A stretch of 64,000 nucleotides of DNA, taken from the NCBI GenBank assembly GCA_050331295.1, contig JBHJGZ010000004.1, positions 477,008 to 541,007 of the forward strand. The letters are read 5' to 3'. Shown in pieces: positions 2,279 to 34,671 of the stretch. Every line of letters starts with the position of its first letter. Positions within the stretch are counted from its first letter, which is position 1. The notes under the pieces were generated by a model, which did no database searches, was not told the DNA's origin, and saw nothing but the letters and a program-made list of their open reading frames with translations. This stretch comes from Myxococcota bacterium. GTDB lineage: Bacteria; Myxococcota; Kuafuiibacteriia; Kuafuiibacteriales; Kuafuiibacteriaceae. Both the position numbers and the translations under genes were made by a program.

Positions 2279-3472
2279 ATGCTCGCCCCGATGACTTCGG
2301 CGTGGCGACGGCAACTGCGCTCCGCGACGCTCTTTGCGGGTGACGTGGGGCGTCGATTGCAAGGCCTTCTTCCGCCTCGACCCACGCCCTCGGTGGGGGA
2401 TCAGGTCCTCGTTGCACTGTTGCTGCTGCTCGCACTGACCGAAGGCTTCGCGAGGCCGGACCTCGCATGGAGACCGCTCGCGGTGGTTCTGGCTGTTGGG
2501 ACCGTCGCCTCTCTGCTCTGGAGACGAAGCCACCCATTCACCCTCGTGGTCATGGACTTTGGTCTTCACCATTCGGTTCGGTTTGCCGCCTCCCTAGCCA
2601 ACGTGCCGTGGAGCAGTTTGTTCACCAGCATCTGTCTGGTCCTGCTCCCCTACTCTCTCGTGCGCCGGAGTTCATCCTGGCAGATCGCGGTGGGCCTGGC
2701 GGTGATGCTCCTCGGTCCCGCCATGATGGTGCAGCGCGAACGGGTTCCCGAGGCCGTTGCTGCGACCGTGTTGCTCCTCTTGCCCGCGATGCTCGGAGCG
2801 GTCGTGCGGCTTCGGGCCTCTGCTCGCCAGCGGGAGATCGAAAGGGCCAAGCACCTCGAACGTGAGCAGCTGGCTCGAGAACTCCACGACACGGTTGCTC
2901 ATCACGTGTCGGCGATTGTCGTTCAAGCCCAAGCCGGGCGGACGTTGTCGTCCGATCATCGCGAACCCGCAGCGCGCGCGCTCGAAGTGATCGAAGAAGC
3001 AGCCGCGCGCGCGTTGGGAGACATGCGAAGCTTGGTTCGGACGCTCCGCTACGAGGAGCAGCCGCAAATGGCACCTCTTCCGGTGCTGTCGGACTTGAAG
3101 CGACTCGCCCGCAACGCCACCGACGACTTGCCCGTGGAAGTCCAGCTGTCTGGCGACCTGGAAGCACTGGAGCCGACCATTGCCGCGGCCATGTATCGCC
3201 TCGTGCAAGAATCCATCACCAACGCGATTCGTCACGCCCGGGGTGCGACCCATATTGCGGTCAGCATCGTCGGGGAGAAGGATGTGGTTCGTCTCGTCAT
3301 CCGAGACGACGGACGGCTTCGTCATTTCGAAGAGGCCAGGGCCTCGGGATTTGGTCTGGCCGGCATGGCGGAGCGAGCCAGTCTCCTCGGCGGCACGTTT
3401 CGAGCCGGTCCAAACCCCGAACGGGGTTGGACGGTGGAAGCCGTACTGCCGCGAAAGGGTGCTCCGTCGTGA
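2279..3472 (+). CDS. Sensor histidine kinase (HisKA_3 dimerisation + HATPase_c, NarX/DesK type) with polytopic N-terminal membrane domain
   Basis: Several predicted TM helices are followed by the H-box ELHDTVAHHVSAIVVQAQAG. N and G boxes follow: ESITNAIRHARGATH and GFGLAGMAERASLLGG. The stop overlaps the response-regulator start as GTGA. The true start is uncertain and the track ORF begins spuriously at 1685. Confidence 0.8.
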   Translation: MLAPMTSAWRRQLRSATLFAGDVGRRLQGLLPPRPTPSVGDQVLVALLLLLALTEGFARPDLAWRPLAVVLAVGTVASLLWRRSHPFTLVVMDFGLHHSVRFAASLANVPWSSLFTSICLVLLPYSLVRRSSSWQIAVGLAVMLLGPAMMVQRERVPEAVAATVLLLLPAMLGAVVRLRASARQREIERAKHLEREQLARELHDTVAHHVSAIVVQAQAGRTLSSDHREPAARALEVIEEAAARALGDMRSLVRTLRYEEQPQMAPLPVLSDLKRLARNATDDLPVEVQLSGDLEALEPTIAAAMYRLVQESITNAIRHARGATHIAVSIVGEKDVVRLVIRDDGRLRHFEEARASGFGLAGMAERASLLGGTFRAGPNPERGWTVEAVLPRKGAPS

Positions 3473-4125
3473 GCATTCGCGTCTTAATCGCGGATGACCA
3501 GGACCTCGTTCGGTCCGGCTTCAAGATGATCGTCGACGCCCAAGCGGACATGGAGGTCGTCGGCGAAGCGGCGGACGGTGAACGAGCGGTGCGGCTCGGC
3601 CGTGAACTCCGGCCCGACGTGTGTCTATTCGACATTCGAATGCCGCTCATGAACGGCATCGAGGCGACGCGACATCTGGCCGGACCTCACCTTACGGATC
3701 CCCTGGCCATCGTGGTGATCACGACCTTCGATCTGGACGAATACGTCCACAATGCGCTGAAGGCTGGGGCCCGGGGCTTCCTTTTGAAGGATGCCGGTCC
3801 GGACCTTCTGCTTCAGGCGATTCGCGCGGCGGCTCATGGCGATGCGCTGATCGCCCCGAGCATCACGGCGCGCCTCCTGGACCGGTTCGCGCACGCAGGC
3901 GCATCATCTCTGCCAGCTCACCCCATCGAGGCCCTCACCGAGCGCGAGGAAGAAGTCCTGCTCCTTGTCGCCCGTGGTCGTACCAACGCCGAGGTCGCAA
4001 CCGACCTGTCCATCCATCTCAGCACAGTGAAGAGCCACATCGCGAGCCTGATGGGAAAGATTCAGGCCCGAAATCGAGTCGAACTCGCCATGTGGGCCTA
4101 CGAAACCAACCGCCTGGGCAGCTGA
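3469..4125 (+). CDS. Response regulator, NarL/FixJ family (REC + LuxR-type HTH)
   Basis: Receiver motifs VLIADDQDLVRSG, D in LFDIRMP and the conserved K region. C-terminal LuxR HTH: LTEREEEVLLLVARGRTNAEVATDLSIHLSTVKSH. Coupled to the upstream kinase. Confidence 0.85.
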   Translation: MSIRVLIADDQDLVRSGFKMIVDAQADMEVVGEAADGERAVRLGRELRPDVCLFDIRMPLMNGIEATRHLAGPHLTDPLAIVVITTFDLDEYVHNALKAGARGFLLKDAGPDLLLQAIRAAAHGDALIAPSITARLLDRFAHAGASSLPAHPIEALTEREEEVLLLVARGRTNAEVATDLSIHLSTVKSHIASLMGKIQARNRVELAMWAYETNRLGS

Positions 4126-4153
4126 GGCCAGGCGAGACAACCCTGGAAAGATC

Positions 4154-4975
4154 ATGACGCAGACCGAAACTCTGACCGCGACTCAAATGGATACCCGTGC
4201 CGAAGGCTGGCTTCGGGCCGCACAAAGCCTTTGGTTTGGGCTGACCATCCTCGGGCAGTGGACCTTCGTCTATTTCATCGTCGCCTACTACTTTGGCGCG
4301 ACGTGGACGGGAGAGTTCGCGCGCTGGAACCACAAGCCTCTCATCACCGGGCATGTTCCCGGGGACCTTTCCGGCAATCTGGTCTTCGCCGGCCACGTCA
4401 TCATGGCCGCCGTCATGACCGCGGGTGGAACGCTTCAGCTCATTCCACAACTCCGCGAACGAGCCGCGGGATTTCATAGATGGAACGGCCGTTTCTTCCT
4501 GATTACCGCCGTGCTTCTCGCAACGGGCGGCCTGTATCTGGTTTGGGTTCGCGGTTCCTATCTCAATTTGACGACCGCATTGGGCATCACCGTGAATGCA
4601 CTGCTGATCATCACATTCGCCATCCTCACGGTCCGGCTGGCGATGCAGCGGGACATCGATGCCCATCGGCGTTGGGCGCTTCGTACATTCATGGTGGCCA
4701 ACGGTGTGTGGATGCTTCGGGTCGGCATGATGTTCTGGGCGGTAACAACGCGGGGAGCCGGCATGACCCGGAACATGAGCGGGCCATTCGACCTGTTCTG
4801 GATTTTTGGGTGCTATCTGGTCCCGCTGGCGGGCTTGGAAGCCTATCTTTGGGTTCGCTCGTCAGGCGGTGTCATGACGAAGTGGGCCATGTCCGGTGCC
4901 TTGTTCGTCTTCAGCTTGTTCATCGGAATCGGCTCGGTGGCCGCGTATCTGCTGATGTGGGGCCCATACATATAA
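4154..4975 (+). CDS. Polytopic membrane protein (DUF2306-like)
   Basis: 273 aa with about 6 hydrophobic helices, lying directly downstream of the two-component pair. The family call comes from overall topology only. Confidence 0.55.
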   Translation: MTQTETLTATQMDTRAEGWLRAAQSLWFGLTILGQWTFVYFIVAYYFGATWTGEFARWNHKPLITGHVPGDLSGNLVFAGHVIMAAVMTAGGTLQLIPQLRERAAGFHRWNGRFFLITAVLLATGGLYLVWVRGSYLNLTTALGITVNALLIITFAILTVRLAMQRDIDAHRRWALRTFMVANGVWMLRVGMMFWAVTTRGAGMTRNMSGPFDLFWIFGCYLVPLAGLEAYLWVRSSGGVMTKWAMSGALFVFSLFIGIGSVAAYLLMWGPYI

Positions 4976-5509: not shown

Positions 5510-5913
5510 GGGGCACTCTCCTTCGGCAGCGGACGCTAGCCAAGAGATCACCTGAGGTAAAATGGGGTTGGGCAACAATAACGCCCTCAGCGACCGTGGG
5601 GGATGGGACCGGAACCTTCCGGCGGGGACTTCATGGGAGGCGTGGCCGTCTTCCGCGGGGCGTCTCGAAAATGTGCGAACCCCAAGCTGGGAGCCCTGAT
5701 CACGCGATGGAAGGGACGCGGCGCCGTCGGCGGCTCATCCGCGGACTCAGGGGGTCCGTTCCAGCGCCAGGTCAAAGCGATCAACGTGAGTGCGAGCGCC
5801 ACCCAGATTTCGAACTTCACGCCATCCCCACCAGCAACCGACGGGCCACGCTGGGGCAGCCCGGGCTCGAAGAAAAACCGAGACGGTTCGTCCGGGCGTC
5901 GTCCGGACCCGAC

Positions 5914-22579: not shown

Positions 22580-24244
22580 ATGCTCGGAACCATCCTCGGA
22601 GCTTGCATCGTCGCCGGTACGCCCTTGCTCCTCGCGCAGGCTCGGCCGTCTACGGACACAACGGCCCGCCCTTCGGTCATCGAGATCGACAACATCGAGA
22701 TCCGAGGCAACGTAGCCCTGCCGAAAGGCGTGTATCGTGGCGTGCTACGTCGGCGCGCAGAGGAGTCGTCATTACCCCCGGAGCAGGTTCAGGCCATCCT
22801 GACGGAGTTTCTTCATCGAAGCGGTTACGATCTGGCTTCGGTCGAAATCGCCGACAACGTCGTGACCGTTGATGAGGGCCGACTCGACAGTGTGGTGTTC
22901 GTCGGCGCCAGCACAGGGGCGGTCCTCGGTTTCAAGCTCAGCTTCAACCTTCCAGGCCAGATCTTCAATCGATCCCTCATCGAGCAAGAGCTCGACCGCA
23001 TCGTTCGTGAAGGCGAGCTTGCCTCGGCAACCTGGGAACTGGTTCCTGCACCCCAAGCGAAGGGAAGTTTTCTTCAGCTCGAAGGAACCCGACGGATAGG
23101 CACGGTCACGGTCTTTTCTCCTGGGACCGAGTACTCACTGCGGATTTACGTCAAGCAGAGAGAATACGCCCCTGGCTTCGACCTGAACTTCGGTTTTCGA
23201 CCGCCGGACGGCATCTTCGTGAATACGGAATGGCGTTTCGTGAACGCCTTCTTGCCCCGGGATAGGATCACGTTTCTGAGCAGTCTCGGCGTAGACATTC
23301 TCGACCTTGCCGACGAACCGTCTGACCGGCTGGGAATCACCCGAGCAATCGCCGACGTCAAGTGGTTCACGCCGCCCTTGGGGGTGCCATGGCTTCGCTT
23401 CTTTCTCAATGCGAGCGCGCGAGGCCAAGGCCGGAACCGTACCGAAGATATCGGTGTTCGGAGCTATATCTTCTTCCCGCTGGTTGGTTCGGCAAACATT
23501 CAATTCGACTTTGGAGATATCGAGACGTTCTTCGGTGGCGGCGTCGAGCAACGCTTTACGTTCCGGGTAGTCTTGGCGGATGAGTTCGATGAGGACGCTG
23601 CTCCCATCTCCGTGCCGGCCGATACTCTGGAACCGGATGCCAATCTCCGTCCGTTCTTTGCGTTCGGCGGAGAGTACAATCTCGCGCCGGGACGGGTTCG
23701 CAAGGATCGACGTCACTTGTTCCGCCTTGCCGGTCGCGTGCTGGGGTCAGGACCGGACGACGCCGATGGAATCATCGATGTTCAAGCCTTCTATAAGAAT
23801 ACGGTTCTGTTCGGATGGGACGAATTGCGCTATGGCGCGGCCGGCGCCTTCATCGGCGGAGATGTGCCATTCTTCAATGAAGTCGCCTTCGGCGATGGCT
23901 TCTTCAGGGCCGCCTTTCTGGATGAGCTCTATACGACGCGTGTCGTGACGGGAAAGATCGAGTATCGCTTCTCGATCAGCCGAGACGTATTCAAGCTGAG
24001 CATTTTCAACGACGTGGGTGTTTTCGAAGAGCTCGACCTCTTCGACGACCCCGAGTTCGCCGGCTTTCCTCTCCGTAGCCGCCTCGGGCCGAGATTTGTC
24101 GAGGCGCCAGGCGTAGGGTTGCACGCTTTGGTCTTGGACGTGTTCCAGGTCGACCTCTACACCGGAGCGGGTTTCGTCTTCGGGACCGGTGATGGAGTCG
24201 ACGCAGACGTCGACATATCGCTTTCGATCGCTCAAGTGTTTTAG
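22580..24244 (+). CDS. Omp85-family outer membrane protein (BamA/TamA/TpsB-like: POTRA + beta-barrel)
   Basis: Signal peptide, POTRA-like IEIDNIEIRGNVALPKGVYRGVL and a long amphipathic beta region ending ...DISLSIAQVF with a terminal aromatic. Which subfamily is unresolved. Confidence 0.65.
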   Translation: MLGTILGACIVAGTPLLLAQARPSTDTTARPSVIEIDNIEIRGNVALPKGVYRGVLRRRAEESSLPPEQVQAILTEFLHRSGYDLASVEIADNVVTVDEGRLDSVVFVGASTGAVLGFKLSFNLPGQIFNRSLIEQELDRIVREGELASATWELVPAPQAKGSFLQLEGTRRIGTVTVFSPGTEYSLRIYVKQREYAPGFDLNFGFRPPDGIFVNTEWRFVNAFLPRDRITFLSSLGVDILDLADEPSDRLGITRAIADVKWFTPPLGVPWLRFFLNASARGQGRNRTEDIGVRSYIFFPLVGSANIQFDFGDIETFFGGGVEQRFTFRVVLADEFDEDAAPISVPADTLEPDANLRPFFAFGGEYNLAPGRVRKDRRHLFRLAGRVLGSGPDDADGIIDVQAFYKNTVLFGWDELRYGAAGAFIGGDVPFFNEVAFGDGFFRAAFLDELYTTRVVTGKIEYRFSISRDVFKLSIFNDVGVFEELDLFDDPEFAGFPLRSRLGPRFVEAPGVGLHALVLDVFQVDLYTGAGFVFGTGDGVDADVDISLSIAQVF

Positions 24245-25064: not shown

Positions 25065-26396
25065 ATGGCCGCCCCCTCGTACTGCCCGCTCTGCGATTTG
25101 GAGCGGGAAGAGGACTGGTGTTCCATCCACCAAGTGCCGACCCTTCCCCCTGGCACCGGGCGACCGGCCCAGATTACCAACGGTTCATTGATGGTAGGCC
25201 GATATCGGATCGACGGCCTGCTGAGCCACGGAGGGATGGGAACCGTCCTGGAAGCGACTCAGGTCGGCATCAATCGGAGAGTCGTGGTGAAGGTGCTGAG
25301 AGGCACCCGCTCCGACGACCGCGCCCGGGTTCGACGGTTCTACCAGGAGGCCCGGCTCGTCTCGAGCCTGAATCATCCGCACATCGTCCGGATCTTCGAG
25401 TTCGGCGTCGACCCGAAGTTCCGCGTGCCGTTCATCGCGATGGAGCGGATCGAAGGGGTCACCCTTCAGCGGCTGGTCGACCGGGAGGGCCCGCTCCCGG
25501 AACGGCGCGCCAGTCGCTTGTTCTCTCAAATCGTGAGGGCGCTTTCGGTCGCACACGGGAAGGGCGTGCTTCACCGAGACCTCAAGCCGCGAAACATCAT
25601 GGTGAATCGTCTTCCCGAAGGCGACGAGCACGTCACGGTTCTCGACTTCGGCCTGGCCAAGCTGCTCCAGGACGAGCAGGACGTCCCGCCATTGACGGCA
25701 CCAGGTCGGACCGTCGGCACGCCGGGTTTCATGAGTCCTGAGCAGGTCCTGGGCCGACGACTGGACGCGCGTTCGGACCTGTACGGTGTCGGCTGCATGC
25801 TCTTCGCGGCCGTTAACGGGAGCCCGCCCTTCGAGGGCGCGGCGGCCCTCAGCGTGATGCGGAAGCAGGTAAGAGAGCCGCCTCCCCCGCTCCCCCGCCG
25901 CCTCTCGGATGGGGCGCCCCCCTCGCGTGCCCTCACGTCTTTGGTGTTCGCCCTCCTGGAGAAAAAACCGGAGGAGCGGCCATCCCGTGCTGAAGACGTT
26001 CGGGTCCAGCTGGACCGGATCGCGGCCGCCCAAACGAGCGATAACGCAGAAACCCTGCCCGGTGCCGTGCTCCCGAGAAGACCTCGAACCGCAGCCTCTT
26101 CGAGCAGCGGAACCACGGGGTCGCTTCAGCCTTCGACGCCCCCGGTCCGACGTTCCGTCCAGATCAAGATCGATGACGCCCCAACCGCAACGCCCGCATC
26201 CACGTTCGGGGCCAAGGACCCACTGGATGACGTGACCACGCTGCGTTTGCCAGACGGCTTTGATCGGGCCAGCGCCGCCGCCGATGTGGAATCTGATTGG
26301 AATCCCGTTCCGCCCGGAGCCATGGCCCGAACCATGATGGTCGTCGTCGCGTGTCTCGCCCTGGCGGCGGTCGGAACGTGGTGGATCGCCAGCTGA
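25065..26396 (+). CDS. Serine/threonine protein kinase (Hanks-type), C-terminal TM anchor
   Basis: GHGGMGTV, VVKVL, HRDLKPRNIMV, DFGLAK and GTPGFMSPEQ. A Pro/Ser-rich linker and a terminal TM (MMVVVACLALAAVGTWWIAS). Second kinase in the window. Confidence 0.85.
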   Translation: MAAPSYCPLCDLEREEDWCSIHQVPTLPPGTGRPAQITNGSLMVGRYRIDGLLSHGGMGTVLEATQVGINRRVVVKVLRGTRSDDRARVRRFYQEARLVSSLNHPHIVRIFEFGVDPKFRVPFIAMERIEGVTLQRLVDREGPLPERRASRLFSQIVRALSVAHGKGVLHRDLKPRNIMVNRLPEGDEHVTVLDFGLAKLLQDEQDVPPLTAPGRTVGTPGFMSPEQVLGRRLDARSDLYGVGCMLFAAVNGSPPFEGAAALSVMRKQVREPPPPLPRRLSDGAPPSRALTSLVFALLEKKPEERPSRAEDVRVQLDRIAAAQTSDNAETLPGAVLPRRPRTAASSSSGTTGSLQPSTPPVRRSVQIKIDDAPTATPASTFGAKDPLDDVTTLRLPDGFDRASAAADVESDWNPVPPGAMARTMMVVVACLALAAVGTWWIAS

Positions 26397-26403
26397 CGTC
26401 CGA

Positions 26404-26922
26404 TTACTTGTGCACCTTGTTGTATTCGCGAATGACCTGGTTCGTGAGGTCCAGGTGCTGCTTGGCGAAAAGAAGCCGATTGGATTGGACTTCCAGGATG
26501 AGGGTGTAGCCCCCGGCTTTGCCGATGGCTGAGATGGTCTCACGCATCTTGTTGGTAATGCTCGCGAGCTGCTGCTGTTCGAGGTTCTGCAGCTCCTTTT
26601 GCTCCTTCATGATGGTCTGCTGAAGCTCGACCAGTCGTCCTTGGAACTCCGCCTGCCTCGCTTTGACTTCGGGAGAATCGGAGGCGGCCGTGGCCCGTAG
26701 CTCCTCCTGCAAATCCTTGAGCTTCTGCTCTTTGGCGGTGATCTGTTCCTGCTTTTCGCTGAAGACCTTTTCGATGGCCGCTTTTGCGCGTTTTCCCTCC
26801 TCAACACTGACGATCGCCCGCTGAAGATCTACGTAACCGATCAGCGGATCCTCCTTGGGAGCCGCGAAAGCGGGTTGCGAGAGAAGCGCGGCCAGCAGGA
26901 ATGCTCCAAGGCGCAGCATCAT
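26404..26922 (-). CDS. skp: Periplasmic chaperone Skp (OmpH)
   Basis: Signal peptide, 172 aa, coiled-coil body typical of Skp: IGYVDLQRAI...AIEKVFSEKQEQ...TLILEV. Confidence 0.8.
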   Translation of the reverse strand: MMLRLGAFLLAALLSQPAFAAPKEDPLIGYVDLQRAIVSVEEGKRAKAAIEKVFSEKQEQITAKEQKLKDLQEELRATAASDSPEVKARQAEFQGRLVELQQTIMKEQKELQNLEQQQLASITNKMRETISAIGKAGGYTLILEVQSNRLLFAKQHLDLTNQVIREYNKVHK

Positions 26923-27018: not shown

Positions 27019-28290
27019 TCAGCCTTGCCGGTGTCCAACGGCCTTGGGCGCTCCCAGCTTTTCCAGAAAGAGGTCCCGCAGCTCACGGATCTCTTTGTCT
27101 CTGCTCTTGAGTCCGCGAAGGCTCGTGATCAACTCCGGATTCGCCCGGACCCGACCTCGATCCTCCAGTTCGAGGAGTTCCTCGATGGCGAGCTTTGTCA
27201 GCTTGTTATCCCCGAGTGTCATCACCTTCATCAACAGGTTCTGATCCGGCGGCAGGCGGAAGCGCTCGGCCAGGGTGTGTGCCGCCTTCAGAGCTCTTTT
27301 TCCACCCTCGATGCGGAGCTCTGTGGTCAATGTGTCTTGCTCACTTATGCGAAGCTGAAACTCGGACTTGTGAATCGGCGGATCCAACGCCGGAGGAGGC
27401 GGAGGGCGATTGCCTTTCGGCTTCCAGTTGGGAGCAATCTTTTGAAAGGCTGCTTCGGCTTCAGCCCGCTGCCGTTCTGCGAAACTCATGGGCTTGTGTT
27501 GGGGTCCTCCTGCTTCGGGGGCACCAGCCGAACGGTCGCGGTCTTTCCCTGCCGCACGCGCCTTCCGTTTGGCGGCTCGTTCGTCCGCCGACATGCGAAT
27601 CACGCCGGCCGCACGCCGAGGTTTGGTGTCCGGTACCGACTCGACAGCAGCGCTCCGAGGGGTACTTCTGGACGTTGACGTGGACTTCTTGGGCTCGGAT
27701 TGAGCCTCGTTGGTTGGTGACTTCACGGGGGACTTGGTCCTCGAAATGGCGGGCGCTTTCCGGCCCGAAGATGTCGCTTTACCGGCGCGGGAAACCCGCT
27801 TGAAGAAGGGCCCGGTCGGCAGGGCGGCGGCGGTCGTCTCCCGCGGAGCCCCCTTCGGAGCCGTTCGAGGGTCCGAAGCGGTCTTGCGGGTTGGACCCGA
27901 CGTCACAGCAACCCTCTTGCGAGGGCTCGCCTTTTTCGCCGCCGCAGCTTTCTTGGCGGTGGAAGGACGAGATCCTCTCTGGGTCTGCGCAGCTGATCGT
28001 CGAGTGCTTACCTTCTTCGAAGCCGCTGACTTCGTCGCTTTTTTTGCTCCGCGTACCGCCTTCTTCTTCGTCGCCTTCTTTCGCGCGACCGAAGTTCCTG
28101 ATGCCGAGCGGCTCGCGCCTTTCGTTGTCGAACGTTTCGGCGTCGCCTTCTTCTTGGTTCGTGAGGCTTTTGTACCGGAACGGCTCCGCGTGCTTTTGGT
28201 GCTCGTCGCCTTCTTTTGGCTGGTTGTCTTGGATGTTCGCTTCGCCGCTTTCTTCTTCTTCTTCTTCTTCGCGACGCGGTCAGTCGTCAT
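27019..28290 (-). CDS. Histone H1-like Lys/Ala-rich protein with C-terminal helical domain (hypothetical DNA-binding protein)
   Basis: The first ~220 aa are AKK/KKA/TKK low-complexity (MTTDRVAKKKKKKKAAKRTSK...AAKKASPRKR). The last ~150 aa form a charged helical domain. 12 nt downstream of purL and upstream of skp on the same strand. The antisense ORFs are Phe-rich junk. Confidence 0.6.
   Translation of the reverse strand: MTTDRVAKKKKKKKAAKRTSKTTSQKKATSTKSTRSRSGTKASRTKKKATPKRSTTKGASRSASGTSVARKKATKKKAVRGAKKATKSAASKKVSTRRSAAQTQRGSRPSTAKKAAAAKKASPRKRVAVTSGPTRKTASDPRTAPKGAPRETTAAALPTGPFFKRVSRAGKATSSGRKAPAISRTKSPVKSPTNEAQSEPKKSTSTSRSTPRSAAVESVPDTKPRRAAGVIRMSADERAAKRKARAAGKDRDRSAGAPEAGGPQHKPMSFAERQRAEAEAAFQKIAPNWKPKGNRPPPPPALDPPIHKSEFQLRISEQDTLTTELRIEGGKRALKAAHTLAERFRLPPDQNLLMKVMTLGDNKLTKLAIEELLELEDRGRVRANPELITSLRGLKSRDKEIRELRDLFLEKLGAPKAVGHRQG
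28249..28269 (-). repeat. (AAG)6-AAA homopurine triplet run encoding K7 at codons 8-14 of the H1-like gene
   Basis: The plus strand shows tttcttcttcttcttcttctt, a perfect 21-nt polypyrimidine/polypurine microsatellite inside coding sequence. Confidence 0.7.
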
Positions 28291-28302
28291 ACCGCTTTCT
28301 CC

Positions 28303-30534
28303 TCACCGATTCAGCGCTTCCTCGAGTCCTTCATGAAAGGCTCGAGCCAGCGCGGCCACCGGAACTTCAAAATCACCTTCGATGATCAAGTGATCGCCTC
28401 CGACCCATCCGAGCGCCTGGGCGGGGCATCCCGCTCGTGTTGCAAATTCCAGGGCCTCTTCAAGGTCGTTCGACCGTACCGACATCACGACAAGGTCTGC
28501 GCCTTCACCAAACCACACCCGATGAGCATCCTCTTCGGCCAAATGAGTCGTAATTCGAGCTCCTCGGGTTCGATTCGGGTCCGAAACGCAGCATTCGGCC
28601 AAGGCGGTAGCAAGGCCGCCTTCGGCCGCATCGTGGGCGGACTGCACAGGCAGCCGAGATACGAGGCCGAGGGTTGTCTCCAGCAACGTGCGAACCCCGT
28701 GATAGTCGGGCTCGACGGGCCGGCCCGTCAGCTCGCCATGCCTCATCAGCTGAATTTCCGAGCCGGCCCAACTCGCCCGGCGCGGGTCACCGAGCAAGAT
28801 GATCGCGTCGTCCTCGTTCTGGAAGGCAATACCGGGCACACGCCCTACATCATCGACCTTCCCCACCATCCCAATGGTCGGAGTGGGGAGAATCGGTCGC
28901 CCTTCGGTTTCGTTGTACAAGGAAACGTTTCCAGACACCACCGGTGTCTTCATCGCCTTGCAGGCCTCCGCCAACCCCTCGATCGCTTCGACCAGGGTCC
29001 ACATGACGCTCGGCTTTTCCGGGTTCCCAAAGTTCAAGCAGTCGGTCACCGCGAGTGGTACTGCACCCACGCAGGCAAGGTTGCGTGCGGCCTCGATGAC
29101 GCCGAGCGCCGCCCCCCTCCGCGGGTCCAGAGAAACCCAACGTCCGTTCATGTCCAAAGTGATGGCGACCCCTTTTCGGGTGTTTGAGGTGGGCCGTAGA
29201 CGATGATCGGTGAGGCGAACCACCGCAGCATCGGCTGAGCCGGGGCCAGCAACCGTCGACGCCCGGACCGTGCTATCGTACTGCTCGTATGCCCATCTCT
29301 TGCTGGTAATGGTTGGTCGGGCCAGGAGTGTAACCAGCGTGTCCGCCGGATCGTCGATCCTGACCGGTGGAGATGTCCAACGCTCAACGTGCTGGGCTGG
29401 CCGGGCATACGGACGATCATAGCTCGGCGCCGCATCCACCAGCAGGGAGGTGGGGAGGTCTGCCACGACGTCATCCCCGTCTTTGATCACCACGCGTCGC
29501 GAGCTCGTCACGCTTCCAACCACGGCCGACGCCAAGTCCCACTTGTCGAAAATTCGCTTCACCACGTGTTCCGTGCCGGGCCGAACCACCATCAGCATGC
29601 GCTCCTGGCTTTCCGACAACATGACCTCGTACGGCGTCATTCCAACCTCCCGCCGAGGCACACGCGCAGTGTCGATCTCGATTCCCACATCGCCTTTCGA
29701 GGCCATCTCACACGATGAGCTGGTCAAGCCGGCCGCTCCCATGTCCTGAATGGCCACGATGGTGTCCTCGTCCATCAACTCGAGACAAGCCTCCATGAGC
29801 TTCTTCTCGGTGAACGGATCTCCCACCTGGACTCTCGGCCGTTTGGACTCGCTCTCAGAACCGAACTCTTCCGAGGCCATGGTGGCGCCGTGAATCCCGT
29901 CGCGGCCGGTTCGGCTTCCGACGTAGACCACCGGGCTCCCCACGCCGGCTGCGGCGCTCCGAAAGATACGGTCGGAGCGAAGAAGTCCGAGCGTGAAGGC
30001 ATTTACGAGAATGTTTCCATCATAGCTGCGGTCGAACGCGATCTCTCCACCCACGGTGGGAACGCCCACGCAGTTCCCGTAGTGACCTATCCCGCCGACG
30101 ACACCCGCCATCAGGAACTTCATCCGTGGCGCCTCCGGCCTTCCGAATCGGAGTGAATTCAGGTTCGCAACCGGACGAGCTCCCATGGTGAAGACGTCGC
30201 GGAGAATGCCTCCCACCCCGGTGGCCGCGCCCTGGAAGGGCTCGATGAATGATGGGTGATTGTGGGACTCCATCTTGAAGGCGGCGGCTAGACCGTCGCC
30301 CAGGTCCACCACCCCTGCATTCTCGCCCGGACCCTGGAGGACCCAGGCCGCATCGGTCGGAAGCTTCTTCAGGTGCCTCCGACTACTCTTGTACGAGCAA
30401 TGCTCGCTCCACATCACACTGATAATGCCGAGCTCGACCCAAGTGGGAACGCGTCCGAGTGAGTCTACGACCTTGCGCCACTCATCCCGCGTCAGACCGT
30501 GAGTCAGGGCCGCTGCCTCATCTACTCTGGTCAC
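28303..30534 (-). CDS. purL: Phosphoribosylformylglycinamidine synthase subunit PurL (FGAM synthase II)
   Basis: 743 aa with [36 protein letters not shown] and duplicated AIR-synthase-related domains. Confidence 0.95.
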
Positions 30535-31669: not shown

Positions 31670-34537
31670 TCAGGAACCTTCGGACGCCGCGAGCGAACCC
31701 ACCGGTCGGGGCTTCGACGCCTTCTTCGTCCTCGCCTTCTTTTTCTTAGCGGCCTTGCGAGGACCTGCACTCTTCTTGCTCGAAGCTTTCTTGGCCGCCG
31801 CTTTCTTGGCTGAAGCCTTCTTCGACGCAGCCTTCTTTCGGCTCGTTTTCTTGGTCGACTGCTTCTTCGCCGTCTTCTTTTTTTGGGCCGGTTTGTCCGC
31901 GTCCTCGGTCCCCTTCGCTCCTCGGCCGGGTCGAGGCGGAAAGTCGAACCCATGTCGGCCATTGTCTCTCAAATACAAAATGGCCGAGAAGGGCCGCCCC
32001 CGACGAGAGGTGAACTCCTCCAAAAGCGGAGTCTTCCCGTCGCGGAGGTAGGTTTCCGCTTCGCTTCGGGTGATCTCCCGCTTGCACACCGTCCGGGGAA
32101 GAAGGAACCCGCAATAGTCCATGCCTTCCGGAATCTTCCGGGGCCCGATGGTCATCGCGTACGTGTCATCACGACCGAGTGCTCGAATCACTTCCAGGCC
32201 CCGGCTGCAGACAAAGGTCTGACGTGTTTCGACTACTTTTCCTGCATTACACACCGGACAGGATCCGAGGGGCGTCTCGTCGACCTCGTATTCGGGGACA
32301 TCGCTCGCATCCTCAGAGTCTCCACCCTCGAGGCGATTCAATTCGACGTCTTTGTCGTGAAGAACCAGTTCTCCGCGATACGACCGGCCCTGCTGGGTCA
32401 TGAATCCGTCCAGCGGACGGGACTTTCCTTGCTCCAGGAGCTCGGTCACGGTCTTCCGGTCGATATACCGATTGGACTTATCCTTCCAGACTCGGAACTC
32501 ACAATCCTCGATGAGGTCGATGCCGGCTTCGGCCATCTTCTTCCGTTTTCGCTGGTTGGTCTCGAGTCCTTCCGGTTCCTTGCATCGATAGAACCAACTG
32601 CGTTCGTACACCGGCCGTTTCTTGTCGCACGGACAAAGACCGAGCGGTGCCCGGTCCGGAAACAGATCCTCGAACTCGAAATTCTTGGTCAGATCCACGA
32701 TCTCCTCTGCGTATTCGTAGATCTCGTCCATGAACGCGTCGCCCTTCATCTTTCCGCGTTCGACCTGCGCGAGGTGCTGCTCGAGCTCACCCGTGAGTGC
32801 AGGTGAAGCCAGCCGCTCCGCTCTCATTCGTCTGAGTATATCAATGAGTCGGATACCTTTGACCGAGGCCTTCAAGCCTCTGCCGGCCCGTAGGACGTAA
32901 CCCTTCGAGATCAGATTCTCGATGATCTCGGCTCGGGTAGCAGGTGTCCCGATGCCTGAATCCTTCATCGCTTCGGCAGCCTCCTCGTCGTCGACGAATC
33001 GTCCCGCCGTCTCCATGAGGGAGAGAAGCCTCGCTTCCGAGAGGCGATTCGGAGGCTTCGTCTGGTCTGCATCGAGCTCAACGCTTTCGGTTTCGACCCC
33101 CACACCATCCGTGGATTCGGCATCGGAGATTCGTCCAGTGACGGGGCGCAGAGGCACGAGTTTGCCTTCACCCTCGGTTTCGCCCATGACCTCTCGCCAT
33201 CCGGCGTCTTGCAGAAAACGGGCGGACGACCGAAAGTGTTCGCCTTCGACGACGGTGGTTCGATTGATTCGAATCCAGGTTGCCGGTCCGAAAAAGGTCG
33301 CCAGGAACCGACGCGTTACGAGGTCGAACAACCGAGCGTCGTCGCCACCGAGGTCCGTGACCAGAGTTCCGGTGGGCACGATAGCGAAGTGATCCGAGAC
33401 CTTGCTGTCGTCGAAGACCCGTTTCGTGTTCAGAAGACCATCTTTCTTCAGCGCGCTACACGCCTTGGCGAACCGGTCATCGGAAGCGAGTTGGTCAATG
33501 ACGTCGTCGACAACCGAACGGTAGTCACTGGGAAGTGCCTTCGAATCGGTACGGGGATACGTCAAGATCTTGTGCCCCTCATAGCAACGCTGAGCGGCAT
33601 TGAGGGTGCGACGGGCGGACCAACCGAATCGACTGTTGGCGGTTCGCTGGAGGCTCGTCAGATCGAACAACGCGGGCGCCAGCTCCGTACTCGGTTTGAG
33701 GGTCTCGCTGGCGAGCCCAGCCTTTCCTTGGACCTTCGCCACCACGTCCTTCGCCTTGCCCTCTTCGAAGATCCTGTCGTCTCGAGCCTCCTCTCGGCTG
33801 GGGTCGGACTTGAAGCTGGGGTCGAACCAAACGCCTTCGTAGCCGTCATCTCCGTGGAGAAACTGAGCTTTTACCCGCCAGAAGGCCTTTGGGACGTGAC
33901 TTAGAATCTCCAGTTCACGGTCCACCAGCATCGCCAATGTCGGCGTTTGGACCCTTCCCGCGGACCAGCCTCCAACTTCGCTCCGGGTCTTGAGACGCTT
34001 GGTGAGCGCTCGGGACGCGTTCATGCCGATGAGCCAATCCGAATAGGTGCGGCAATAGGCGGCGGTCTTCAAGCCGTCGTATCTCGAGCCTGGCTGGAGT
34101 TTGGCAAAACCTTTGCGAATCGCATCTTTGGTCATCGACTGAAGCCAAAGGCGCTCGACCGGCTTCCGACTCTCGAAGTAGTCGGCGATCTCCCGAAAGA
34201 TCAGCTCGCCTTCCCGGCCTGCGTCGCAAGCGTTGACCAGTCCCTCGACGTCATCTCGCTTGAGTAGCTTCTTGAGGGTCTTGAGGCGCTCATCTGTCTT
34301 TTTCTTTGGTTTGAGTGGAATAACCTTCGGATTGATGGGCAAGGCGTCGAGGGTCCAAGCTTTCCATTTGGGATCGACCTCTTCTGGCTGCATCAACTCG
34401 AACAGATGACCGACGGCAAAGGTGACGACGAAATCCTCGTTTTCCCAGTATCCGTCGTGCTCAGAGAAGCCTCCGAGGGAAGCCACGATATCTCGCGCTA
34501 CACTCGGCTTCTCCGTGATGACTAGGCGTTTGCCCAT
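31670..34537 (-). CDS. topA: DNA topoisomerase I with C-terminal zinc-ribbon repeats and Lys/Ala-rich basic tail
   Basis: MGKRLVITEKPSVARDI, TFAVGHLFEL and catalytic Tyr region GHKILTYPRTDSKAL. C-terminal Cys4 ribbons (CPVCNAG...C). Final ~75 aa KPAQKKKTAKKQSTKKTSRKKAASKKASAKKAAAKK. The track start 34588 precedes the conserved MGKR. Confidence 0.95.
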   Translation of the reverse strand: MGKRLVITEKPSVARDIVASLGGFSEHDGYWENEDFVVTFAVGHLFELMQPEEVDPKWKAWTLDALPINPKVIPLKPKKKTDERLKTLKKLLKRDDVEGLVNACDAGREGELIFREIADYFESRKPVERLWLQSMTKDAIRKGFAKLQPGSRYDGLKTAAYCRTYSDWLIGMNASRALTKRLKTRSEVGGWSAGRVQTPTLAMLVDRELEILSHVPKAFWRVKAQFLHGDDGYEGVWFDPSFKSDPSREEARDDRIFEEGKAKDVVAKVQGKAGLASETLKPSTELAPALFDLTSLQRTANSRFGWSARRTLNAAQRCYEGHKILTYPRTDSKALPSDYRSVVDDVIDQLASDDRFAKACSALKKDGLLNTKRVFDDSKVSDHFAIVPTGTLVTDLGGDDARLFDLVTRRFLATFFGPATWIRINRTTVVEGEHFRSSARFLQDAGWREVMGETEGEGKLVPLRPVTGRISDAESTDGVGVETESVELDADQTKPPNRLSEARLLSLMETAGRFVDDEEAAEAMKDSGIGTPATRAEIIENLISKGYVLRAGRGLKASVKGIRLIDILRRMRAERLASPALTGELEQHLAQVERGKMKGDAFMDEIYEYAEEIVDLTKNFEFEDLFPDRAPLGLCPCDKKRPVYERSWFYRCKEPEGLETNQRKRKKMAEAGIDLIEDCEFRVWKDKSNRYIDRKTVTELLEQGKSRPLDGFMTQQGRSYRGELVLHDKDVELNRLEGGDSEDASDVPEYEVDETPLGSCPVCNAGKVVETRQTFVCSRGLEVIRALGRDDTYAMTIGPRKIPEGMDYCGFLLPRTVCKREITRSEAETYLRDGKTPLLEEFTSRRGRPFSAILYLRDNGRHGFDFPPRPGRGAKGTEDADKPAQKKKTAKKQSTKKTSRKKAASKKASAKKAAAKKASSKKSAGPRKAAKKKKARTKKASKPRPVGSLAASEGS

Positions 34538-34671
34538 GACGCCGCAGCAAAGACACAAGCTGACCGGGTGCGCAAGTCCAGCCCGCACAGTGAACGGCGC
34601 CAGCGCGCTCCTCCGTCATGCAGGAGGGGTTGCGGCTCTCAGTAGACGATGAGTCGAAGGGTGGTCGGGCG

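Follow-up and report, generated by a model that had tools for sequence, protein, structure and literature searches.

A gene for a lysine- and alanine-rich, histone H1-like protein in the company of purine-biosynthetic and envelope genes raises a question: what kind of protein is this, and what might it do? The gene, here called X, lies in a 64,000-nucleotide stretch of DNA (the window) from a Myxococcota bacterium (assembly GCA_050331295.1, contig JBHJGZ010000004.1, positions 477,008 to 541,007). An earlier note, made from the letters alone, had placed its frame at 27019–28290, 12 nt after purL and ahead of skp on the same strand; the list of open reading frames (ORFs) and the sequence confirm this placement. 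The answer that we favor, with a probability of about 55%, is drawn by analogy: X would be a DNA or nucleoid tether, in which a polycationic tail carries a protein-binding module.

A polycationic tail that keeps its charge

The earlier note had described a low-complexity basic N-region joined to a structured helical C-domain, and both parts were recovered in our analysis. Residues 1–233 of X comprise 18% K, 17% A, 15% S, 14% T, 12% R and 7% P. Their pI is 12.0, their net charge is +63, their sequence entropy is 2.6–3.2 bits, and hydrophobic residues account for 0–12%; this tail is presumably intrinsically disordered. The last ~190 residues of the protein have an ordinary composition, and the last 156 are structured (see below).

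Is the tail that of an H1-like protein? As a description of composition (pI 12, +63), the label holds. It does not extend to the curated models: window X matched neither the Pfam model HC2 nor any linker-histone Pfam model, even at E ≤ 10. Compared with a textbook H1 tail, that of X has less Lys and more Ser, Thr and Arg; H1 tails contain roughly 40% Lys, whereas the figure for X is 18%. At the DNA level, Tandem Repeats Finder (TRF) detected a run of seven lysines encoded by (AAG)7 at ~28249–28270 and no other tandem repeat in the tail of the window’s X.

The tails of relatives are informative in this regard. In all full-length members of the family, the N-region is strongly basic, with net charges of +34 to +140, 12–39% K and 16–29% A, though by eye these regions are not alignable to one another. 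Often they consist of in-frame tandem repeats with periods of 33, 54, 66, 69 or 123 nt (33 and 66 nt in locus L001; 54, 69 and 123 nt in L003), all of them multiples of 3. These comparisons indicate that selection has kept the charge and composition of the tail and not its sequence, which turns over through repeat expansion and contraction. This is the pattern that marks a protein binding polyanions by electrostatics.

The lysine-rich repeats of X also break or confound metagenome assemblies. The contigs of L002/L005 and L004 begin inside them, and that of L003/L012 has a masked run of N at ~5700–5800, in the repeat region.

A conserved domain of the HEAT/ARM type

The C-terminal 157 residues of X have homologues in uncultured Myxococcota. 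An exhaustive profile search over 1.84 billion cluster representatives returned 49 matches, 40 of which had E < 1e-10, and at least 12 species-level genomes carry the family. Among the 49, every full-length match (the longest has 687 residues) carries the domain at its very C-terminal end; members with complete N-termini have K/A/T/P-rich N-regions, several of which begin MSAKRA. The window’s C-domain is 43–69% identical to the aligned or matched members. Where organism names are given, all are metagenome-assembled genomes of uncultured Myxococcota, Myxococcales or Deltaproteobacteria, and so far as it has been sampled the family appears confined to an uncultured Myxococcota lineage. The source names in the cluster records all read “hypothetical protein”, and a literature search found no description of the family. 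The possibility, raised beforehand, that the reading frame is a compositional artefact is contradicted by these data: about 40 clusters share the C-domain, and the complete N-termini keep the basic low-complexity region.

Two AlphaFold (AF2) models, calculated from alignments of 9 and 13 sequences, agree on the C-terminal fold. Residues 311–411 were predicted with a predicted local distance difference test (pLDDT) score of 94–98 and are entirely helical, with six helices arranged in three hairpins. The two C-terminal hairpins show a sequence repeat of ~34 residues, P-[DE]-x-L-[LI]...L-x-[ED]-x-[LF]-L-E-x-L. The HEAT/ARM superfamily is characterized by alpha-solenoids built of antiparallel helical hairpins stacked on one another, and the modeled C-domain has this arrangement. 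In the models, this domain is HEAT/ARM-like at the level of the fold, in a generic sense. Its invariant elements, LPPDQ, ALEELLELxDRGRVR and LLEKLG, occur in this order and are preceded by a KPMSVAEKxRAxAEAxF helix; together they make up a family signature that is present in window X. Upstream of the domain are two short conserved segments, motifs A and C. Motif A, with the family consensus VVRIAxGERxxK, was modeled as a helix at residues 235–248 with medium confidence (pLDDT ~66–76), and motif C as a helix at residues 270–285, KPMSFAERQRAEAEAAF, also with medium confidence.

The earlier note had recognized no family for the C-domain, and the curated resources offer none. No significant match came from scans of Pfam, NCBIfam, PHROGs and PADLOC with full-length X, with the C-domain or with 26 family members. 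The HEAT and Arm sequence models had no match at E ≤ 0.1 to X or to the 26 members; faint matches to HEAT_2 (E 0.031) and Arm (E 0.056) occurred only in distant small relatives. Foldseek comparison of the C-domain to the PDB yielded no match at E ≤ 0.001 (E-values of 0.07 or higher), and single-sequence and profile searches of PDB sequences gave only noise (E 0.06 or higher). With its ~40 homologous clusters and a fold class, the C-domain appears to represent an undescribed family, outside all curated families and best filed as new.

Between motifs A and C, most members (P0010–P0036; L006–L016) carry a further motif, (V/I)E(I/L/V)NP(K/R)LESS(R/K)G, which may be a linear interaction motif. It is absent from window X and from L001, its closest relative.

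A separate group of small proteins from other metagenomic contigs (P0047–P0054, 129–238 residues) matches the HEAT-like core weakly (E 1e-6 to 1e-3), and several of them share the N-terminal motif KK(S/T)W(R/K)(D/E)ID...YKSxLxKxFD. As a functional lead they gave nothing: they are without names or family matches, and the two whose contexts were seen, P0049 (L018, 6001–6717) and P0050 (L019, 6001–6462), sit in unrelated gene neighborhoods.

Reality of the 423-residue frame

The public annotation of this genome (GCA_964605845.1) has, in place of X, only a 156-residue protein (P0001) that starts at M268 (27487–27489); it also calls a 196-residue antisense gene. Because GC-rich, AAG-rich DNA opens several frames, and because of this conflict in annotation, the long frame needed testing. 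Could it be that only the 156-residue protein is made, and that the upstream 800 nt are non-coding or belong to the antisense gene? Besides the annotation of both, this reading can draw on a GGAGGA located 15 nt 5' of M268 and on codon-usage scores, which do not favor the sense frame.

The comparative data speak against it. When the 801-nt N part was subjected to mononucleotide shuffling, the frame stayed open in 17 of 20000 trials. Among the loci, all 12 have a sense frame without a stop as far as the upstream gene, compared with at most 4 for any other frame (antisense, 0–4); because the ORF itself served to delimit the regions, this count is partly circular. Independently of such regions, the frame reaches to within ~12–180 nt of the purL stop in the 10 loci that have purL upstream, and in L008 and L011 X starts ~130–600 nt 3' of topB. 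Upstream of the C-domain, the frame runs for a further 190–455 codons in the 11 other complete loci (L001; L003/L012, which is one contig fetched twice; L006–L011; L013–L016). Motif A lies 5' of the annotated start, and yet it is conserved at the protein level throughout the family. The short form would leave an atypical 813-nt gap after purL, and it does not account for a basic composition that is kept despite unrelated sequences or for repeat periods in multiples of 3. As for the antisense calls, that in the window sits within a 208-residue ORF (27710–28336, forward strand) over lysine-rich DNA; such calls are Phe/Ala-rich (FFATAFF-like) and overlap the 3' end of purL, and an analogous one was made in L001 (5223–6002, reverse strand).

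On the strength of the frame extension, the basic composition, the multiple-of-3 repeats, the open frame in relatives and motif A, we judge the 423-residue X to be real and full length, and the 156-residue and antisense calls to be artefacts. An additional internal start is possible. That the short form alone is made is very improbable; comparison among the loci has largely refuted it already.

The error appears to be systematic. Gene callers choose an internal Met or Val codon as the start, and in some cases they place an additional antisense “gene” on the lysine-codon repeats; it is because of such internal-start calls that the family is recorded mostly as hypothetical fragments of 100–250 residues, which make up many of the database entries. 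Corrected calls matter to any census of nucleoid proteins in the Myxococcota.

A proposed tether and its targets

What might such a protein do? In the mechanism that we propose, module 1 (residues 1–233), a disordered polycation, would bind DNA or another polyanion non-specifically, by electrostatics, as do the C-terminal tail of H1, chlamydial Hc2, the KPAA tails of AlgP/PhaF and those of actinobacterial HupB, TopA and Ku. Module 2 (residues 229–416), which consists of the two short conserved helices and the three-repeat HEAT/ARM-like domain, would bind a protein partner or mediate self-association. X would in this way serve as a tether or bridging factor, anchoring itself or a partner on the nucleoid. 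We infer both the binding of DNA or polyanion by X and the binding of protein by its C-domain; the latter is proposed because the domain is strongly conserved and because of its fold class. HEAT/ARM-like folds are overwhelmingly used for protein–protein contacts, and from its modeled fold this part of X is more likely to bind protein than DNA.

We hold the structural claims on X with high confidence, and we take it as established by this analysis that the gene is a genuine one of full length, together with its two-module architecture, its fold class, its synteny and the distribution of the family. Several observations favor a tether. Conservation is differential: an alignable, well-conserved C-domain accompanies N-regions that cannot be aligned. 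Two relatives have N-regions with a match to Pfam HC2 (cut-off 40 bits), that of P0010 above the cut-off (46.9 bits) and that of the L001 ORF below it (26.2 bits). A DNA-related gene that encodes a K-rich tail of its own, topB, lies upstream of X. X is a candidate for a chromatin or tethering protein specific to its lineage, a large-genomed one that has no cultured member among the matches.

A number of points weigh against this reading. DNA binding by X is so far a prediction. In window X the tail has only 18% Lys, with much Ser and Thr, and no H1 or Hc2 model recognizes it. A HEAT-like fold is a generic one, and a partner of X is hypothetical. The neighborhood of X may reflect inherited synteny rather than function. 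Even at the level of the gene, neither periodicity of GC content at third codon positions (GC3) nor synonymous-codon scoring could tell the frames apart, in a region of extreme composition and weak codon bias. Lastly, tails of this kind may have polyphosphate as their target, instead of or besides DNA, as is seen from AlgP (PMC9239181).

This last point leads to an alternative: the tail would target another polyanion, such as polyphosphate granules, RNA or ribosomes, and the HEAT-like domain would organize the resulting structure in the manner of AlgP. That protein, which has a helical domain and an H1-like KPAA tail (+55), localizes to polyphosphate granules and spaces them (PMC9239181). Disordered-polycation electrostatics are not specific for DNA, and the composition of X would suit any polyanion. 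Near X, however, there are no polyphosphate, polyhydroxyalkanoate or ribosome genes, the only DNA-related neighbor being topB, and most characterized bacterial K-rich tails bind DNA. We consider this alternative unlikely, if still worth entertaining.

Gene order and neighbors

X has an ATG start codon and a single uninterrupted frame of 423 codons (ORF list). The stop codon of purL (TGA, 28303–28305) is separated from X by the 12-nt spacer GGAGAAAGCGGT; the purL product has the AIRS, AIRS_C and FGAR-AT linker domains (Pfam scan). On the other side, 96 nt lie between the stop of X and the start of skp (26404–26922, same strand; OmpH family, E 5e-28). A promoter and terminator scan around X found none above background, and an Rfam search of the whole window had no match. 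Given the 12-nt gap and the failure to find promoter or terminator motifs, X is probably co-transcribed with purL. The features of the gene and its surroundings are collected in the table.

Table. Coordinates of X, its parts and neighboring features in the window
Feature	Position	Strand	Basis or remark
Coding sequence of gene X	27019..28290	-	423 aa; stop at 27019-27021; ORF list and recurrence of the architecture in 11 other complete loci
Polycationic low-complexity region, X residues 1-233	27592..28290	-	Composition, entropy, TRF
Motif A, X residues 229-246, GVIRMSADERAAKRKARA	27553..27606	-	Alignment A3, homologue sequences, AF2
Motif C helix, X residues 266-287, KPMSFAERQRAEAEAAFQKIAP	27430..27495	-	Alignments A1-A3, AF2 helix
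Pro-rich variable linker, X residues 288-309, NWKPKGNRPPPPPALDPPIHKS	27364..27429	-	pLDDT <55; alignment variable and gapped
HEAT/ARM-like helical-repeat domain, X residues 310-416	27043..27363	-	Six helices, three hairpins (AF2)
Shine-Dalgarno-like GGAG	28299..28302	-	8 nt 5' of the X ATG, immediately 3' of the purL stop; read from the sequence
Antisense ORF annotated as a 196-aa gene	27746..28336	+	L017 gene table (3154-3744) mapped to the window; judged an artefact
topB	31670..34588	-	Topoisomerase III; NCBIfam

The insertion of X into a biosynthetic and envelope operon had struck the earlier note as unusual. The relatives do not support this view. The order topB-purS-purQ-purL-X-(dapA-like, unknown)-skp, with all genes co-oriented, recurs in 10 relatives with complete flanks, and beyond skp, on the opposite strand, follow genes for a Ser/Thr kinase and an enoyl-CoA hydratase. 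The dapA-like insert is absent from the window, L001, L002/L005 and L010; purSQL is absent from L008 and L011, where X directly follows topB, with about 200–600 nt of unassigned sequence from the topB stop to the first ATG of X (positions ~4000–4800). All related genomes that were recovered have X at a single, syntenic locus. Comparison of gene orders indicates that the block is inherited synteny, ancestral in the clade, and not an insertion.

Next to skp, might X be an envelope protein working with Skp, with its tail serving as an extended, K/A/P-rich periplasmic spacer like those of TolA and TonB? Those proteins have K/A/P/E-rich extended domains, and X does adjoin skp in the window, L001, L002/L005 and L010. 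In most relatives, however, the dapA-like gene and another intervene. X also has no signal peptide or membrane helix, and no N-terminal membrane anchor or signal peptide of the TolA/TonB type is present: its N-terminus, MTTDRVAKKKKKKK, lacks an export signal, and hydrophobic residues stay at 0–12% over residues 1–260. The idea is extremely doubtful, and X, as proposed, is most likely a cytoplasmic protein.

Upstream in the block lies topB. With its product, the NCBIfam subfamily model for “DNA topoisomerase 3” (NF005829, cut-off 597) gives 597.2 bits; the top match is to the topoisomerase III equivalog NF006032, at 853 bits against a cut-off of 1058. The lysine-rich C-terminal tail of TopB (window 31670–31900, reverse strand; e.g. 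KKKTAKKQSTKKTSRKKAASKKASAKKAAAKK) recurs in 10 of 11 loci (the topB 3' ends of L001, L007–L011 and L013–L016), with its composition kept and its sequence not. In L014 and L007, the repeat style of the TopB tail resembles that of X from the same genome.

X could be viewed as an accessory of topoisomerase III: its HEAT-like domain would bind TopB or the K-rich tail of TopB, and the two basic tails would bring both proteins together on DNA. X lies downstream of topB and co-oriented with it in 11 of the 11 loci that have that flank, directly adjacent in the two loci without purSQL. No K-rich segments other than the two in X and TopB occur in the 64-kb window, and ARM-type solenoids can bind (KR)n peptides (PDB matches 5mfi and 6s9l). 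Set against this, the whole block (purSQL, skp, the kinase and the enoyl-CoA hydratase) is syntenic, and the adjacency is therefore not specific to topB; synteny alone cannot decide whether the linkage of X and topB is functional. A Trp/Asn ladder is a feature of importin-type ARM repeats, and the C-domain of X lacks it. We regard this role as rather improbable.

A more elaborate version would have the HEAT/ARM-like C-domain read lysine-rich tails (the tail of TopB or, in trans, that of X itself) and so build, on the nucleoid, a multivalent and self-associating polycation network or condensate that recruits topoisomerase III. This would amount to a clade-specific chromatin-like scaffold, with tail and tail-reader in one polypeptide; we think it quite improbable.

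Comparison with known systems

Does X, in its favored role as a tether, belong to a known group of tailed proteins? The closest architectural parallel is DdbA of Streptomyces, which has a domain resembling histone H1 at its N-terminus and one resembling DksA at its C-terminus (PMC3643593). X likewise has an N-terminal lysine-rich, H1-like region, which in DdbA binds DNA, followed by a C-terminal globular effector domain. The two differ in that the C-domain of X is HEAT/ARM-like and not DksA-like; they have no sequence similarity and come from different phyla.

AlgP and PhaF of Pseudomonas combine a helical domain with an H1-like KPAA tail that tethers a cellular structure to the nucleoid or to polyphosphate, and their peptides and tails bind DNA (PMC9239181). 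They share with X a helical module and a long polycationic tail (net charge +55 for AlgP, +73 for X). Their tail, however, is C-terminal and built of regular KPAA repeats, whereas that of X is N-terminal, non-repetitive and rich in Ser, Thr and Arg. X had no phasin or AlgP match in Pfam, though in function it may still be analogous to these proteins.

Chlamydial Hc2 (PF07382) resembles X in having a Lys/Ala-rich, repetitive basic sequence, but it lacks a HEAT-like domain; the HC2 matches of the relatives reflect low-complexity similarity, with homology not demonstrated. The likeness to eukaryotic H1 is one of composition only and lies in the disordered, polycationic C-terminal tail of H1, rich in K, A, P, S and T. 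X is without the winged-helix globular domain of H1/H5 (PF00538), its only folded part being all-helical repeats. Comparison of sequences thus indicates that X is not a member of the DdbA, AlgP/PhaF, Hc2 or H1 families.

Lysine-repeat tails on the folded actinobacterial proteins HupB, TopA and Ku raise DNA affinity or processivity (PMC5676037, PMC7398561, PMC3553676), and myxobacterial CarD has an HMGA/H1-like basic domain (García-Heras et al. 2009, as given in a citing paper). X is like these proteins in bearing a basic low-complexity tail on a folded protein, as does the neighboring TopB. It is unlike them in its folded part, an uncharacterized HEAT-like domain; theirs is an enzyme acting on DNA, or a protein that binds it, of a kind already known. 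From the HEAT/ARM alpha-solenoids, such as E. coli YibA, TOG domains and alphaRep, X differs in having only three repeats and no significant Pfam HEAT/Arm match. Bacterial H1-like tails were already known; what is new here is the coupling of such a tail to an undescribed, well-folded HEAT-like domain.

Other features near X

The kinase gene beyond skp encodes a eukaryotic-like Ser/Thr kinase (25065–26396, forward strand) and is convergent with skp; its position is kept in L002, L006 and L008. Because this gene adjoins, we looked for (S/T)Px(K/R) sites of the SPKK or cyclin-dependent kinase (CDK)-like type in the tail of X. There are three; enrichment over shuffles was not clear, and the idea was dropped.

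Also near skp is a 554-residue ORF (22580–24244, forward strand), which is annotated publicly as well and had no Pfam or NCBIfam match. Its product ends ...SIAQVF; outer-membrane beta-barrels typically have an aromatic residue at the C-terminus.

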